Part shown: piece by piece, positions 108 to 5,674 of the stretch
Numbering within the stretch: position 1 is the stretch's first letter
Layout of the letters: each line of letters begins with the position of its first letter
NCBI GenBank assembly: GCA_963787965.1
Contig: CAWBES010000013.1
Span: 2,338 to 66,337, forward strand
DNA length: 64,000 nt
Reading direction: 5' to 3'
Origin: an uncultured Alphaproteobacteria bacterium
GTDB taxonomy: Bacteria > Vulcanimicrobiota > Vulcanimicrobiia > Vulcanimicrobiales > Vulcanimicrobiaceae
The notes under the pieces: model-generated
What the model was told of the DNA's origin: nothing
Databases searched by the model: none
The model's input: the letters and a program-made list of their open reading frames with translations, nothing else
Position numbers and translations under genes: made by a program

Positions 108-500
108 ATGATCCCCGAGAGCCGAGGAACCTTGATGCGGATTTATCTGGACGAAAGCGACCGCTGGCGCGGAACGGCGCTCTTCGATGCGATCGTGAAG
201 ACGCTCCTCGATAGCGGCATCGACGGCGCGACCGTTTTCAAAGGCGTCGAAGGGTACGGCGGACGCAAGCTGATCCACTCGTCGCGAGTCGTCGACGGCT
301 TGCAATCGCTGCCGGTGGTCATCGAAGTCCTCGACGACGAGGAACGCATACGCCGCGCGATCCCGCTCGTCGAGCCGATGATCGCGGGCGGCGTCATCAC
401 GCTCGAAAAGGTACAGATCATGCACTATCGGGCGGGAGAGGAAGCGGACGAACCGGCTGCCGCCGCGAGCGATGCCGATGCGGCGAACGCGGAACCTTAG
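108..500 (+). CDS. DUF190 / COG1993 PII-like protein, paralog 1
   Basis: The translation (LMRIYLDESDRWRG...DGATVFKGVEGYGG...LPVVIEVLDDEERI...GGVITLEKV) follows the DUF190 pattern (LRIY..e.D...g.pLy..iv...GiaGATV.rG..GfG...LP.vIE.vD.ee.i...G.itle.v). GAGGAGG lies just upstream of ATG 108. Confidence 0.85.
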   Translation: MIPESRGTLMRIYLDESDRWRGTALFDAIVKTLLDSGIDGATVFKGVEGYGGRKLIHSSRVVDGLQSLPVVIEVLDDEERIRRAIPLVEPMIAGGVITLEKVQIMHYRAGEEADEPAAAASDADAANAEP

Positions 501-835
501 CGCTTTTTCGCAGGAGCGAAGACCGCGAACTCGACGCGTTCGAGCGTGACCAAGCCTTCCGAAATCATGCTACGCAGTTGCGGTACGACCGCCACGATCT
601 TTTCAGGCTCGTCGACGACTTCGATGAGGACCGGAAGGTTCGGGAATCCGAAGACGCTCGAGACGTGCACCTGCTTGTGGGAGCCGAATCCTTCGATGCC
701 CATGAAGACCGTTGCCCCCGCGATACCGGCACGCTTGAGAGCGCCCACGATGGCCGTATAGAGCGGTTGACCGTGCCAGCGATCGTGCTGGTCCACGAAG
801 ATTCGTAGGAGCTTCCCCTCGTGAAAATCCGCCAT
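497..835 (-). CDS. DUF190 / COG1993 PII-like protein, paralog 2
   Basis: These are the last 112 codons of ORF 497..1474. The internal ATG (CAT at 833-835 on the + strand) opens MADFHEGKLLRIFVDQHDRWHG...AGATVFMGIEGFG...LPVLIEVVDEPEKI...GLVTLERVE. The ORF upstream of it is Arg-rich and not protein-like. Confidence 0.85.
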   Translation of the reverse strand: MADFHEGKLLRIFVDQHDRWHGQPLYTAIVGALKRAGIAGATVFMGIEGFGSHKQVHVSSVFGFPNLPVLIEVVDEPEKIVAVVPQLRSMISEGLVTLERVEFAVFAPAKKR

Positions 836-1055
836 TCCGATCCCACGCCTCTCTGACCGGCCGGTGCCGGCGTGCGACTTTGCCGCGCAGCGCCCGCCAT
901 CATTTTTCGCAGGTGCGCGTTCCCGCCGGCATCGGCCGGCCGCCGTCGTGCGGACCACTTTCACGATGCGGCGGATGGACGCGCATCCCTCGTCAGCGAC
1001 AACGCGCCTTGATATACTCGAAGGGGACAACGTGGATCGTTGTCGGGGGCCTGGT

Positions 1056-1406
1056 ATGGACGGATTCACGCCTGCGAAGCTGCTCCGCGTCTTCGTCGAC
1101 GATAACGACCGGCTCGGGGTGCAGCCCCTTCGCGTAGCGATCGTCGAGCTGCTGATGAAGCACGGGCTGGCGGGCGCCACCGTATTTCGCGGCGTCGAGG
1201 GCTTCGGGTGCCACGAGGTGATCCGTCGGGCAAAGGGCTTCGCCTGGCTGCCGAACCTGCCGATTCTCATCGAAGTCATCGACCGCGAGGAAAAAGTCGT
1301 CGCCGTCCTGCCCGACTTGCAAGCGATGATCCCCGACGGCTTGATCGTGCTCGAGTCGGTGGAAATCAAGCAGCTCAAGGGAGCGGTAGCTTCCAAGCGA
1401 AACTGA
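1056..1406 (+). CDS. DUF190 / COG1993 PII-like protein, paralog 3
   Basis: The internal ATG at 1056 of ORF 864..1406 opens MDGFTPAKLLRVFVDDNDRLG...AGATVFRGVEGFG...LPILIEVIDREEKV...GLIVLESVE. It looks clearly closer to paralog 2 than to paralog 1 by eye. Confidence 0.85.
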   Translation: MDGFTPAKLLRVFVDDNDRLGVQPLRVAIVELLMKHGLAGATVFRGVEGFGCHEVIRRAKGFAWLPNLPILIEVIDREEKVVAVLPDLQAMIPDGLIVLESVEIKQLKGAVASKRN

Positions 1407-1477
1407 GGGACTCGGTTCTTCGGCCGATATCGGTCTGACTGACGCGCCGGCTTTTCGACGACGGCTCGCGGCACGCC

Positions 1478-1516
1478 GAAGAAATAGCTAAGAAGACGAT
1501 GACGTGACGCATCGTC
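1478..1516 (-). terminator. Possible minus-strand intrinsic terminator
   Basis: GACGATG (1495-1501) pairs with CATCGTC (1510-1516) as a 7-bp stem with an 8-nt loop. On the minus strand it is followed by UUCUUAGCUAUUUCUUC. There is no U tail on the + strand. Confidence 0.3.
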
Positions 1517-1691
1517 TCCACCAAATCGGGCGCCGGTTCATCGAGCCAAAGGTACCTGCCGCCGCATGCCGGTGAGCGCGCTCGCGAACGCGACGGTCGG
1601 GAGCGTGCCGGCAGCCACGAGGAAGGCCGGCACCCGGCGAGACGGCGTCGACGCGAGGAACATCAGACCGCTTCCGAGAACGGCGCGGCAC

Positions 1692-1739
1692 GGCGATGGA
1701 GCTCGCCTTAACTGCCGATTCCGGCTGATGGCTCCTGTG
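1692..1739 (+). promoter_or_regulatory. Fluoride riboswitch (crcB RNA motif) aptamer
   Basis: The sequence reads GGCGAUGGAGCUCGCC UUAACU GCCG AUUC CGGC UGAUG GCUCC UGUG. P1 is GGCG/CGCC, the pseudoknot is GGAGC (1699-1703) with GCUCC (1731-1735), and P3 is GCCG/CGGC. The conserved GAUG, AACUGCC and GGCUGAUGG blocks match characterised fluoride aptamers almost base for base. It lies 90 nt upstream of the antiporter ATG. Confidence 0.85.
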
Positions 1740-1828
1740 TCAACAACGCGAGGCGGACGTGACATGGGCGCGGCCAACGGAATGTCTGAGTTTGTCGAGG
1801 TGCTCGTTACGCGCGCAGGAGCCCGCCG

Positions 1829-2986
1829 ATGAGCGCGCTCGCCGGGAATACGTGGATGGTCGCCGCGGTTTGGATGCTGCTGGCGGCGATCAGCGCGATT
1901 CTAGCCGTGCGTGTGAAGGTCGCCGCGGCGCTGGTCGAGATCGTCATCGGCATCCTCGCCGGGAGCTTCATCGATCTGCGCACGAACGACTGGGTCGACT
2001 TCGTGGCCGGGTTCGGGAGCATCTTGCTGACGTTCCTGGCCGGCGCCGAGATCGACCCGGTCGTGCTGCGCAAGCAGCTCGTTCCGTCCGCGACGCTCGG
2101 GTTCGTCTCGTTCCTCGCGCCTTGCGTGGGCGCGTGGGCCTACGCCCTCTACGTCGGTCACTGGACTCCCGACGGCGCGAAGATCGCGGGGATCGCGATG
2201 TCGACGACGTCGGTGGCCGTCGTGTATGCCGTACTCGTGGAGTCCGGACTCTCGAAACGGGAGTTCGGCCAACTGATCCTGGCCGCGTGCTTCTTCACCG
2301 ATCTCGGTACGGTCGTTGCGCTCGGCCTGCTGTTCGCGAACTACAACGTGTGGCTGGCCGCGCTCGTGCTGCTGATCCTCGCGAGCATGGCGGTCGTTCC
2401 CAAGATCTTGCCGCCGATGCTCGAGAGCATGCAGCGCTACGTCAGCGAGCCCGCGCTGCGCGTGCTGTTCGCGATCGTCTTCGTGCTCGCGGCGGTGGCG
2501 ACGTACGCGCGCAGCGAAGGCGTGCTGCCGGCGTACTTTCTCGGGCTCGCGTGCGCGGGCGTGATGATGACGTACCCGGACGTGAAGCGCCGGCTGCAGA
2601 CGATGACGATGACGATTCTCGCGCCCTTCTATTTTCTCAAGGCGGGCACGTTCGTCTCCCTGCGCGACGCGTGGAGCGGCGCGGGGATCATCGGCGCGCT
2701 CTTCTGCGTCAAGGTCTTCGCCAAGATCGGCGGCGTGTGGCCGGTCGCGCGGCTCCTCCGCTACGAAATCCGAGATGCGAGCTACCTGACGCTCCTGATG
2801 GCAACCGGACTCACGTTCGGGACGATCTCGAGCCTGTACGGCTTGACGCATCATTACATCGACCGCGCGCAGTACACGGCGCTCGTTACGGTCGTCATTC
2901 TGACGGCGGTCGTGCCGACGCTCGTCGCGCAAGCGATGTTCAAGCCGGCCGAGGAGCCGCCCGAGCTCGAGGCTGAAGTCCCGTAA
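1829..2986 (+). CDS. Cation:proton antiporter (CPA2 / Na+/H+ exchanger family), membrane domain only
   Basis: The 385-aa protein is polytopic and hydrophobic. The N-terminal LVEIVIGILAG...FGSILLTFLAGAEID and later GIAMSTTSVAVV blocks are typical of Kef/NapA-type exchangers. AGGAG lies 7 nt before ATG 1829. There is no C-terminal RCK/KTN domain. Confidence 0.85.
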   Translation: MSALAGNTWMVAAVWMLLAAISAILAVRVKVAAALVEIVIGILAGSFIDLRTNDWVDFVAGFGSILLTFLAGAEIDPVVLRKQLVPSATLGFVSFLAPCVGAWAYALYVGHWTPDGAKIAGIAMSTTSVAVVYAVLVESGLSKREFGQLILAACFFTDLGTVVALGLLFANYNVWLAALVLLILASMAVVPKILPPMLESMQRYVSEPALRVLFAIVFVLAAVATYARSEGVLPAYFLGLACAGVMMTYPDVKRRLQTMTMTILAPFYFLKAGTFVSLRDAWSGAGIIGALFCVKVFAKIGGVWPVARLLRYEIRDASYLTLLMATGLTFGTISSLYGLTHHYIDRAQYTALVTVVILTAVVPTLVAQAMFKPAEEPPELEAEVP

Positions 2987-3055
2987 CCGCCGCTTGCGGC
3001 CGGTTCGCTACCAAAGACCGGGCCTCACCCGCGCGGCCGATGGTACGATTCATCC

Positions 3056-4204
3056 ATGGCAAGCGACGCGCCGCAATCCCCAGCCTCCGAAACCATCTCG
3101 CCCATCACCGCAGCGTTCTTCTGGCCGCTCGCCGTGGGCGAAAGCGAGTGGAATCTCTACGCGCGGAATCTGAAGTTCTTCGGTGAGGCCGCCAAGCTCG
3201 ATTACGGGTTGCAGCCCGAGCTCGCCACCGCAAACGAGGTTCGGCTCGACCTGCGCACGATGACCTTACGCGATTACTCGCTAACGGCGGCGACGGGCGT
3301 CCCCACGATCGTCGACGCACCGTATGCGGGGCACTCGTCGATGATAGCGGATTTTGCGCCCGGCCAGAGCTTGATGCAAACGCTGCGCGCGAACGGTATG
3401 GGCCGGCTCTTCCTCACCGACTGGAAACCGGCGACGCCGGACATGAAGGACTTCGACTGCGACACGTATATCGCCGAGCTGAACGTCTGTGTCGACGATC
3501 TGGGCGGGCGGGTGAACCTGGTCGGCCTGTGCCAGGGCGGCTGGATGTCGGCCATGTACGCAGCGCGCTTTCCGGACAAGGTCGAGCGCATCGTGCTCGC
3601 CGGCGCGCCGATCGATACCGACGCCGGCGACGGCGCGGTCAAGCGGATGGCCCACGAGCTACCGGTCTCGTACTACGAGCAACTGGTCGCGGCCGACGGG
3701 GGCCTGGTCTCCGGGCGCATGATGCTCTTGGGCTGGAAGAATCTCGATCCGGAGAAGCAGTACGTCGAGAAGTACGTCGACCTTTACAAGAACCTCGACG
3801 ACCCCGCGTATCTCGAGCGCCAGGAACGCTTCTCGAGCTGGTACGAGAATCCGGTCGATCTGCCGGGCCGCTGGTACCTACAGGTCATCGTGCAGCTGTT
3901 CAAAGAGAACCGCTTGGCCAAGGGCGAGTTCGTCGCCCTGGGAAAGCGTCTCCGGCTCGCGGATGTCCGGTGTCCCGCCTACTTGCTCGCCGGCGCGGAG
4001 GACGCCATCACGCCGGCCGTGCAAGTCTTCAATGCCGAACAGTACCTCGGTACGCCCAAGGACCTCATCGTCAAGGAGACCGCGCCGGGCGGGCACATCG
4101 GCTTGTTCATGGGCTCGAACTCGCTTGCGGCGTATTGGCCGAAGATCGCGGCCTGGCTCGTCGCGTCCGGCGCCCCGGAGCCGGAGGGCTCGGGCCGGGC
4201 CTGA
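3056..4204 (+). CDS. Class III PhaC-like alpha/beta hydrolase (putative polyhydroxyalkanoate synthase)
   Basis: The lipase-box variant with Cys (VNLVGLCQGGWMSAMYAARFPDKV), together with later CPAYLLAGAEDAITP and PGGHIGLFMG, is collinear with class III PhaC. No phaE lies next to it. Confidence 0.6.
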   Translation: MASDAPQSPASETISPITAAFFWPLAVGESEWNLYARNLKFFGEAAKLDYGLQPELATANEVRLDLRTMTLRDYSLTAATGVPTIVDAPYAGHSSMIADFAPGQSLMQTLRANGMGRLFLTDWKPATPDMKDFDCDTYIAELNVCVDDLGGRVNLVGLCQGGWMSAMYAARFPDKVERIVLAGAPIDTDAGDGAVKRMAHELPVSYYEQLVAADGGLVSGRMMLLGWKNLDPEKQYVEKYVDLYKNLDDPAYLERQERFSSWYENPVDLPGRWYLQVIVQLFKENRLAKGEFVALGKRLRLADVRCPAYLLAGAEDAITPAVQVFNAEQYLGTPKDLIVKETAPGGHIGLFMGSNSLAAYWPKIAAWLVASGAPEPEGSGRA

Positions 4205-4277
4205 GGATTCGACCGCTCGCCGAACCGCTGGGCTGCGGCCCTGCAGGCTTCGGGCGCGGCCGCGTCATACGCACTCC

Positions 4278-4317
4278 CCCGAGCCGGCGGCGGCTTCACA
4301 AGGCGGCCCGGGTTTTT
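4278..4317 (+). terminator. Candidate intrinsic terminator after the PhaC-like gene
   Basis: CCCGAGCCG (4278-4286) pairs with CGGCCCGGG (4304-4312) at 8 of 9 bp, followed by TTTTT (4313-4317). Confidence 0.4.
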
Positions 4318-4420
4318 GTCGAAAGCAGCGCGGTCCGGGGTGCCGCGCCGCGTCGCGGTACGGTTCCGGAGCGCCGGGCACGGCGCGCAAACGTGCCGCG
4401 CCATTTGGACGGAGTATTGG

Positions 4421-5674
4421 TTGGAGAAAAAACGGGTCGTCATCACGGGAATGGGCGCGGTCACGCCGCTCGGTAACACGCGCGAGGAGTTCTGGGCCGC
4501 CCTCGTCGCAGGCAAGAGCGGCGTAGCGACCGTGACCGCGTTCGACGCGAAGGCGGCGGGCCTCAAATCGCAGATCGCGGCGGAAGTGAAGAATTTCAAC
4601 CCCGACGACCGGATCGGGCGGCGCGACGCGCGCCGGATGGACCGCTTCGCGCAGTTCGCGTTCGTGGCGGCGCGCGAGGCGATCGAAGATGCGGCGTTTC
4701 CCGACGACAAAGAGCTGCGCGACGAGACCGGCGTCGTGGTCGCCAGCGGCATCGGCGGCATCATCACGATTCAGGATACCGTCACCAAGGCGCGCGCGGC
4801 CGGCACGGCGGGACGCATCACGCCTTTCTTCGTCCCCATGCTGATGGGGAATTCCGCGTCCGCGCAGATCTCGATGCGCTACGGGTTCCGGGGGCCGATG
4901 TTCGCGGTGTCCAGCGCCTGCGCGAGCTCGAACGACGCGCTCGGCGTCGCGTACGATATGATCGTCCACGGGAAGGCGCGCGCGATCGTCTCGGGCGGCG
5001 CCGAAGCGACCGTGACCGACGTCGCCATGGGCGGTTTCGATTCGATGAAAGCGCTCTCGACCCGCAACTCGGAGCCCGAGCGGGCCAGCCGCCCCTTCGA
5101 CAGGGAGCGCGACGGCTTCGTGCTGGCCGAGGGCGGCGCCATTTTCGTCCTCGAGGAGCTGGAACTGGCCAAATCGCGCGGCGCTCGCATCTATGCGGAG
5201 CTCCTGGGCTACGGCGAGTCGGGCGACGCCTACGACCTGGTCGCGGTCGATCCGGCCGGCGGCGGCGTGGAACTCGCGCTCAAGCGCGCGTTCGCGTGCG
5301 CCGGCATCGCTCCCAGCGACGTCGACTACGTCAACGCGCACGCGACCTCGACGCCGATCGGCGACCCGGCCGAGTCGCAGGCCCTCGGGCGCATCGTCGG
5401 TGCCGGCGGTCACACATTCGCGGTCAGCTCGACCAAGAGCATGCACGGGCACGCGCTGGGCGCGGCCGGCGCGCTCGAAGGCGTCGCGACGGTGCTCGCC
5501 ATCCGCAATTCGATCATCCCGCCGACGATCAACTACGAGTACCCCGATCCCGAGTGCACGCTCGACTACGTGCCCAACATCGCGCGCAAGGCCGACGTGA
5601 AGATCGCGCTGTCGAGTTCGTTCGGTTTCGGCGGCCATAACAGCGTCGTGGTCTTCGGAAAATATACGGCCTGA
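4421..5674 (+). CDS. fabF: 3-oxoacyl-ACP synthase II
   Basis: KRVVITGMGAVTPLGN, the active-site region AVSSACASS, NAHATSTP.GD and SSTKSMHGHALGAAG are present. I chose the TTG start at 4421, which has GGAG at 4411-4414. The track start at 4316 lies inside the terminator T-run. Confidence 0.9.
   Translation: MEKKRVVITGMGAVTPLGNTREEFWAALVAGKSGVATVTAFDAKAAGLKSQIAAEVKNFNPDDRIGRRDARRMDRFAQFAFVAAREAIEDAAFPDDKELRDETGVVVASGIGGIITIQDTVTKARAAGTAGRITPFFVPMLMGNSASAQISMRYGFRGPMFAVSSACASSNDALGVAYDMIVHGKARAIVSGGAEATVTDVAMGGFDSMKALSTRNSEPERASRPFDRERDGFVLAEGGAIFVLEELELAKSRGARIYAELLGYGESGDAYDLVAVDPAGGGVELALKRAFACAGIAPSDVDYVNAHATSTPIGDPAESQALGRIVGAGGHTFAVSSTKSMHGHALGAAGALEGVATVLAIRNSIIPPTINYEYPDPECTLDYVPNIARKADVKIALSSSFGFGGHNSVVVFGKYTA

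Follow-up and report, generated by a model that had tools for sequence, protein, structure and literature searches.

In fluoride riboswitches of the terminator type, overlap of a pseudoknot strand with the base of the platform hairpin is an established switching principle (PMC11077080), and long spacers occur naturally in fluoride platforms, measuring 63 nucleotides (nt) in one case (PMC11754884). After fluoride exporters, Na+/H+ antiporters rank next in frequency among the gene classes associated with fluoride riboswitches according to a 2024 review (PMC11139923), which in its passage on this class cites Baker et al. 2012. As the review names antiporters as the second most common class, the association of aptamer and antiporter is already known. 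Here we analyse such a locus in a 64,000-nt stretch of contig CAWBES010000013.1 (hereafter, the window), which belongs to the genome of an uncultured Eremiobacterota bacterium. The locus comprises a canonical fluoride riboswitch in the 5′ leader of a gene for a CPA2-type cation/proton antiporter, and the riboswitch very likely acts as a fluoride-induced ON switch. It places a known riboswitch class before a known class of regulated gene, and is thus of a kind already known.

The whole window was scanned with cmscan against the covariance models of Rfam 15, and a single match at gathering level was obtained, to the fluoride riboswitch model RF01734. The match has a score of 52.1 bits against a gathering score of 34 and an E-value of 1.5e-11, and it covers model positions 1–64 of 64 without truncation. 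A sequence-only reading of the window had called a canonical fluoride aptamer here and had proposed a search with this model as the check; run as a scan of all 64 kb, the search gives a significant match at 1683–1744 on the plus strand, and the sequence of 1692–1739 is exactly as that reading quoted it. The aptamer has the following parts:

1683–1744, plus strand: fluoride riboswitch aptamer (crcB motif, RF01734), from the Rfam covariance model

1692–1707, plus strand: P1 hairpin, GGCG (1692–1695) with CGCC (1704–1707), whose loop AUGGAGCU holds the 5′ pseudoknot strand, from the sequence and the covariance-model alignment

1714–1725, plus strand: P3 hairpin, GCCG (1714–1717) with CGGC (1722–1725), from the sequence and the covariance-model alignment

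1731–1735, plus strand: 3′ pseudoknot strand GCUCC, partner of 1698–1702, from the sequence and covariation

The 5′ pseudoknot strand, GGAGC, occupies 1698–1702 inside the P1 loop. The sequence-only reading had placed P1, P3 and the 3′ pseudoknot strand correctly, but its position for the 5′ strand, 1699–1703, was off by one. The joining nucleotides GAUGG, UAAC and CUGAUG agree with the RF01734 consensus, and the aptamer scores as high as the aptamers of its relatives. Furthermore, the pseudoknot strands covary among 42 distinct aptamers from homologous loci (GGAGU/ACUCC in 24, GGAGC/GCUCC in 9, GGGGU/ACCCC in 3, and GGGGC/GCUCC in 3). Two of the five pseudoknot positions covary, and all five pairs are formed in 40 of the 42. 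Judged from its sequence, the element is a genuine but ordinary fluoride riboswitch of a known class, and it is predicted to bind fluoride.

The gene under its control starts 85 nt downstream of the aptamer on the same strand:

1829–2986, plus strand: regulated gene, encoding a 385-residue cation/proton antiporter with a CPA2-type membrane domain and without a KTN/RCK domain, from Pfam and a profile search

The encoded protein matches PF00999 (Na_H_Exchanger) with an E-value of 6.9e-37. Its score for TIGR00932 (CPA2) is 86.8 bits, below the cut-off of 238.3; the protein belongs to a divergent subfamily, and 'CPA2-type' is the safe wording. A single-sequence phmmer search of the antiporter against solved structures gave no match at E 0.001, and a profile was needed. 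A family profile built from 18 members and run against the same structures found NapA (4bwz, E 1.5e-13) and KefC (8bxg, E 2.8e-09) as the sole solved relatives, with ~350 residues aligned; together with the Pfam match, this agrees with the earlier assignment of the downstream gene to the CPA2 type. Homologues are named Kef-type membrane component in their sources. ATG 1829 is the first in-frame start of the gene. The N-terminus that follows it, M-S/N-A-L/I-A-G-N-T-W-M, is kept with third-position changes in two homologous loci (numbered here with the prefix L), L001 and L077, and the sequence upstream of it diverges; in L080 the N-terminus, MHLISDNMWM, is a looser match. Residues T157–D158 of the antiporter (FFTDLG) align with the ion-binding pair Asp156–Asp157 of NapA, and D158 is invariant in the 18 sequences. 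To judge from the aligned residues, the transported ion or the stoichiometry of this clade may differ from those of the classic CPA2 Na+/H+ antiporters.

By comparison across loci, the pairing of aptamer and antiporter is a meaningful one. Among the homologous loci scanned with Rfam, 13 of 20 in a first set and 13 of 20 in a second have an aptamer upstream of the antiporter on the same strand, and a motif search places an aptamer upstream of the antiporter in ~50 of 85 loci. In most loci the aptamer stands immediately before the antiporter; in L002, L003, L016 and L023 it lies ~0.8–2 kb upstream. Close homologues of the antiporter come from Eremiobacterota assemblies. The loci that bear an aptamer represent at least six phyla and include members of Eremiobacterota, Rhodopila, Kiritimatiellae, Planctomycetales, Sumerlaeia and Verrucomicrobia.

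Individual loci add observations of their own. In L022, from a Desulfovibrionales assembly, tandem Rfam-level fluoride aptamers at 2264–2328 and 2867–2928 stand ~600 nt apart upstream of an antiporter homologue. L081 holds a fluoride-response cluster at 530–4922 (DUF190, CrcB, antiporter, an unknown gene, NUDIX, NUDIX and enolase) with no aptamer directly before the antiporter; its contig begins ~500 nt upstream of DUF190, and an aptamer farther upstream could have been cut off. Immediately downstream of its antiporter gene, the 88%-identical relative has a group II intron D1-D4 element (RF01999, 104 bits), located at 3994–4112 in L077, 1662–1780 in L078 and 1569–1687 in L079 (minus strand).

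The 3′ pseudoknot strand (1731–1735 with its flanks) has two alternative, mutually exclusive partners, a proximal one in a hairpin termed HP1 and a distal one that contains the Shine-Dalgarno (SD) sequence:

1729–1776, plus strand: HP1, proximal anti-pseudoknot hairpin, 1734–1742 with 1760–1768 (9 base pairs, bp) and 1729–1733 with 1772–1776 (5 bp), with a 3-nt bulge, from folding and conservation

1813–1823, plus strand: distal partner of 1730–1740 in the anti-SD helix (11 bp, two G-U), with the SD AGGAG (1817–1821) inside, from the sequence and the duplex energy

The strand 1731–1735 is common to the pseudoknot, HP1 and the anti-SD helix. In the anti-SD helix, 1730–1740 (GGCUCCUGUGU) pairs with 1813–1823 (GCGCAGGAGCC) in 11 contiguous pairs, two of them G-U. 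The distal strand lies 72 nt from the shared strand, and the spacing from the SD to ATG 1829 is 7 nt. The duplex energy is −21.6 to −21.9 kcal/mol, and only 4 of ~64,000 plus-strand 16-mers reach −21.6 kcal/mol. Equally complete pairing sites number 7 in 128 kb (both strands of the 64-kb window), and the full six-pair extension is found at 3 of 68 AGGAG sites, the site in this leader included. The chance of such a match is p ~0.005 for an 85-nt leader and ~0.03–0.04 given a strong SD. This rarity of full complementarity argues for more than the automatic match of CUCCU with AGGAG. The sequence-only reading had described this pairing, and had described the 3′ pseudoknot strand as common to the aptamer and the SD-covering helix. 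Both descriptions hold: the pairing is present and rarer than chance, and homologous leaders as a rule pair this strand with the SD.

HP1 uses the 5′ strand of the anti-SD helix, and its 3′ arm is transcribed ~45 nt before the SD strand. It comprises 14 bp with an energy of −21.2 kcal/mol and contains neither an SD nor a U-run; the sequence downstream of it is ACGGAAUGUCUG. In L001 the hairpin is formed by CCUAUGUC/GACAUGGG, and in L077 by CCUUAUGUC/GACAUAAGG, where a U-A pair is inserted on both arms, a compensatory change. Its position, directly after the aptamer, is that of the terminator/SD hairpin in the wider family. Farther downstream, the start codon is enclosed in another predicted hairpin, HP2:

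1797–1840, plus strand: HP2, predicted hairpin of 1797–1808 with 1828–1840, from folding (−21.5 kcal/mol)

HP2 pairs AUG 1829–1831 and is predicted to leave the SD in its apical part. Although the L001 leader has diverged elsewhere, it retains the 5′ arm GCUCGUU, which pairs there with GUGAGC; the hairpin is absent from L077. An independent assembly, L085, holds a strain variant of 1683–2986 with an identical protein and a single substitution in the leader, G1797C. This change costs HP2 its outermost pair and replaces a Glu by Gln in a putative upstream open reading frame (ORF).

We consider it moderately probable that the locus is a fluoride ON switch, acting most likely at translation initiation, in which the pseudoknot, HP1 and the SD strand compete for the pseudoknot strand. 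In the fluoride-free state, the strand would be captured first, during transcription, by the proximal arm 1760–1776 to form HP1. After synthesis of the ribosome-binding site, branch migration could hand the strand over to the SD strand 1813–1823, giving the anti-SD helix. With either helix in place, the pseudoknot would be broken and initiation at AUG 1829 would be poor, an effect that HP2 would help by pairing the start codon. With fluoride, the Mg-F-stabilised pseudoknot would keep the strand, neither helix would form fully, and the SD would become more accessible. Because the fluoride-bound aptamer would keep the pseudoknot strand and free the SD, the step controlled would most likely be translation initiation, not intrinsic termination. 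The earlier proposal of a translational ON switch by mutually exclusive structures is partly supported: an ON response is very likely and the strand is shared, but the anti-SD helix is incomplete as a platform, with HP1 competing for the same strand.

The long-range 11-bp helix 1730–1740/1813–1823 could instead be the sole OFF structure, masking the SD until fluoride frees it through the pseudoknot at 1731–1735; we regard this as possible, though not probable. Its complementarity is real and rare, and forced-helix ensemble energies favour it over HP1 by 3.0 kcal/mol in a transcript that ends with the AUG, at 1831. In the same transcript, constraining the aptamer as bound raises the unpaired probability of the SD from 0.007 to 0.50. 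Two relatives also pair the pseudoknot strand with a distal SD across an intervening hairpin, L080 by GGCUCCU/AGGAGCC and L043 by CUCCU with GGAGG (5 bp). However, HP1 draws on this 5′ strand too, is transcribed sooner, equals the helix in stability and is the element conserved in L001 and L077. Furthermore, the pairing probability of the anti-SD helix is at most 0.035 once sequence to 1850–1900 is included, and extended SD pairing is missing from L001 and L077.

Folding along the transcript favours HP1 at most lengths. Specifically, at least its 9-bp core (1734–1742/1760–1768) is present in the minimum-free-energy (MFE) fold at every sampled length of at least 1770 except 1830 and 1840, while all 12 pairs of HP2 are present at every sampled length of at least 1845. 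The sequence-only reading had called the SD-sequestering platform readable; the helix exists, but HP1 and HP2 had been overlooked, and the helix enters the MFE fold (9 of 11 pairs) only at the transcript ends 1830 and 1840. In these models, the anti-SD helix would be plausible only in a brief period just after the ribosome-binding site emerges.

Several results weigh against the contested-strand reading that we favour. With the first 20–70 nt of coding sequence included, HP1 and HP2 together have an advantage of 4–5 kcal/mol; the forced-helix energies favour HP1 by 5.1 kcal/mol (end 1870) and 4.1 kcal/mol (end 1900). For ends 1850–1900 the SD is ~0.8 unpaired and the AUG ~0.01, with or without the modelled ligand; since accessibility is unchanged with the first 20–70 nt of coding sequence, the equilibrium model predicts no switch. 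Taken as a whole, the leader is no more stably folded than shuffled sequences (z = −0.12), so energy arguments are weak either way and cannot decide the OFF structure. The closest relatives, L001 and L077, keep HP1 in place of extended SD complementarity. Finally, a search for further members of the window's sub-lineage, by scanning genomes and metagenomes and by six protein look-ups, yielded only L001, L077 (with L078 and L079), L080 and the strain variant L085. The sub-lineage thus counts only four distinct sequences, a number too small for covariation of the distal helix to be tested statistically. Either HP1 or the anti-SD helix could be the dominant OFF helix in the cell.

Comparison of ~30 distinct homologous leaders shows that an RCUCCU strand always opens a hairpin directly after the aptamer, and that its partner downstream usually contains the SD. 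In most leaders (e.g. L004–L006, L018, L026, L040 and L084), the 3′ arm reads ..AGGAGU and is followed by a U-run and the start codon, forming a combined terminator/SD mask. Duplexes between the pseudoknot strand and the ribosome-binding region have energies of −21.9 kcal/mol in the window, −15.8 in L080, −9.5 in L001 and −8.0 in L077. The window leader is ~42–47 nt longer than those of L001, L077 and L080. Read by eye, the leaders of the Rhodopila loci L011, L012, L031 and L034, and those of L013, L014 and L039, look like four-strand relays, in which a 3′ arm, GCGGUGGGG or GGUGGGAG, can pair with either the pseudoknot strand or the 5′ arm of a downstream anti-SD or terminator hairpin. A comparable relay in the window, an anti-sequestor pairing of 1764–1771 with 1800–1807 (8 bp, three G-U), was also read by eye and was rejected: HP2 is much the stronger, and none of the constrained folds contains this pairing.

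The conservation of HP1, with its compensatory change, also bears on a reading that takes HP1 as the real OFF partner and regards the SD complementarity as incidental; fluoride would open HP1, and the output would arise other than by direct masking of the SD. We consider this unlikely. One candidate output is translation of a short upstream ORF that begins in HP1, whose ribosomes would melt HP2 and reinitiate at the antiporter start:

1764–1832, plus strand: speculative upstream ORF of 22 codons (MGAANGMSEFVEVLVTRAGARR), from the ORF list and comparison, not established

This ORF opens at AUG 1764, within the 3′ arm of HP1, and closes with a UGA (1830–1832) that overlaps the antiporter start as AUGA. 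Equivalent ORFs of 8 codons (GUGA overlap) and 12 codons (AUGA overlap) are found in L001 and L082, respectively, and in L082 the SD of the ORF is in the 3′ arm of the hairpin, which carries GGGAG 8 nt before the upstream AUG. L077 has neither an upstream ORF nor HP2. HP2 moreover buries the start codon in both modelled states, and the conservation of its 5′ arm in L001 fits such a role. However, given AUGA, 15% of random leaders would by chance contain an upstream ORF that starts with ATG, and the AUG in the arm largely follows from pairing with CCUGU/CCUAU, as L084 shows, where this AUG shares the frame of the main start. The peptide lacks conservation, the SD of the upstream ORF is weak or absent in L001, and only three instances are at hand, with the window and L001 being close relatives. 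That the fluoride signal gates the short upstream ORF, not the antiporter's own SD, which would make it a riboswitch-controlled, translationally coupled leader ORF, is in our view quite unlikely. Two longer ORFs in the region are treated as chance ORFs in a genome of 68.5% G+C: an 88-residue ORF at 1566–1832 that has no Pfam match, and a 405-residue ORF at 1759–2976 that runs out of frame across the antiporter gene.

A scan of 1300–2100 detected no terminator-like site, in line with the earlier statement that no terminator hairpin with a U tract lies between the aptamer and the ATG. The arrangement expected of an intrinsic-terminator platform, a G+C-rich hairpin over the pseudoknot strand followed by a U-run, is not found in the window, whereas L005, L006 and L018 do have the U-run. 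Transcriptional control could in principle operate with no canonical terminator, the fluoride-free HP1 promoting Rho-dependent or other non-canonical termination within 1777–1828. In keeping with this, HP1 sits where relatives have an intrinsic terminator hairpin and U-run, and an 85-nt untranslated stretch separates the aptamer from the AUG. No U-run follows HP1, however, and the G-rich composition of the leader at 1745–1828 (33 G, 23 C) is the reverse of what a Rho loading site typically has, which makes such a site unlikely here. Since relatives in this phylum rely on ordinary U-run terminators, there is no need to assume a special type of terminator, and we judge control of this kind very unlikely.

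The greater length of the window leader also raises the prospect of a decayed platform, in which the aptamer still binds fluoride but an insertion of ~40 nt has uncoupled the gene, now constitutive or poorly expressed. The absence of a ligand effect on accessibility of the ribosome-binding site in the equilibrium model would fit this view. Yet the aptamer has a score on a par with those of its relatives, and the strain variant L085 keeps the leader with its single substitution. In addition, the inserted segment supplies the extended SD complementarity and looks like rewiring, not decay. We regard a decayed platform as highly improbable.

The neighbourhood of the locus was also examined. No match to a sigma-70 promoter was found in the scan of 1300–2100. 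A short motif upstream, GCGAGGA ... AAGAA, is common to the window, L001 and L077 in the alignment. Three paralogous DUF190 genes (PF02641, PII-like) lie just upstream of the riboswitch, at 108–500 (plus strand), 497–832 (minus strand) and 1038–1406 (plus strand), with 39–54% identity among them. DUF190 adjoins CrcB in L081 and L082, and is divergent from the riboswitch in L001 and L080; a link between DUF190 and the fluoride riboswitch was not found in the literature searched. A tblastn search of the 64-kb window with two Eremiobacterota CrcB proteins gave nothing at E up to 1. The next gene downstream, at 3056–4204 on the plus strand, encodes a PhaC-like alpha/beta hydrolase without any evident link to fluoride; against the class III PHA synthase model it scores 123 bits, below the cut-off.

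The locus matters little beyond annotation. It places an antiporter in the fluoride response of an uncultured Eremiobacterota bacterium, and is a further case within a clade of CPA2-type antiporters whose linkage to riboswitches extends over many phyla. This clade-wide linkage supports the view in the literature that homeostasis of pH or cations belongs to the core of fluoride tolerance. An evolutionary aspect is modestly instructive: close relatives combine the same aptamer and gene with different wiring, some with a compact terminator/SD hairpin, others with a four-strand relay, long-range pairing with the SD or a hairpin without obvious output; because the wiring differs among them, the locus could serve as a test case for the rewiring of expression platforms.

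The aptamer of the window has the same P1, P3, pseudoknot of 5–6 bp and GAUGG...AAC...CUGAUG core as the Bacillus cereus crcB and Thermotoga petrophila switches, and it shares with them the logic of a common 3′ pseudoknot strand and the expected ON response. These studied examples use an intrinsic terminator whose base overlaps the pseudoknot, whereas the window has no U-run terminator and offers the strand two candidate partners. HP1 stands at the same position as the hairpin of the compact dual terminator/SD platforms (L004, L005, L006, L018, L026 and L040), whose 5′ arm is RCUCCU plus a few bases. In those platforms the 3′ arm holds the SD and is followed by a U-run and a start within ~10 nt; the 3′ arm found in the window, L001 and L077 (GACAUGGG or GACAUAAGG) has neither SD nor U-run, and the SD lies farther downstream.

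Among solved CPA2 transporters, NapA of Thermus thermophilus and KefC of Escherichia coli are the best relatives of the gene product by profile, but are distant. KefC carries a C-terminal KTN domain that is lacking from the window antiporter, and NapA has a DD motif where the clade of the window antiporter has TD. As in the Na+/H+ antiporters under fluoride-riboswitch control (PMC11139923), the cation/proton antiporter of the window lies directly downstream of its aptamer. Compared with that published class, the case described here comes from a little-studied phylum, Eremiobacterota, and from a clade with Thr-Asp in place of the Asp-Asp of NapA.

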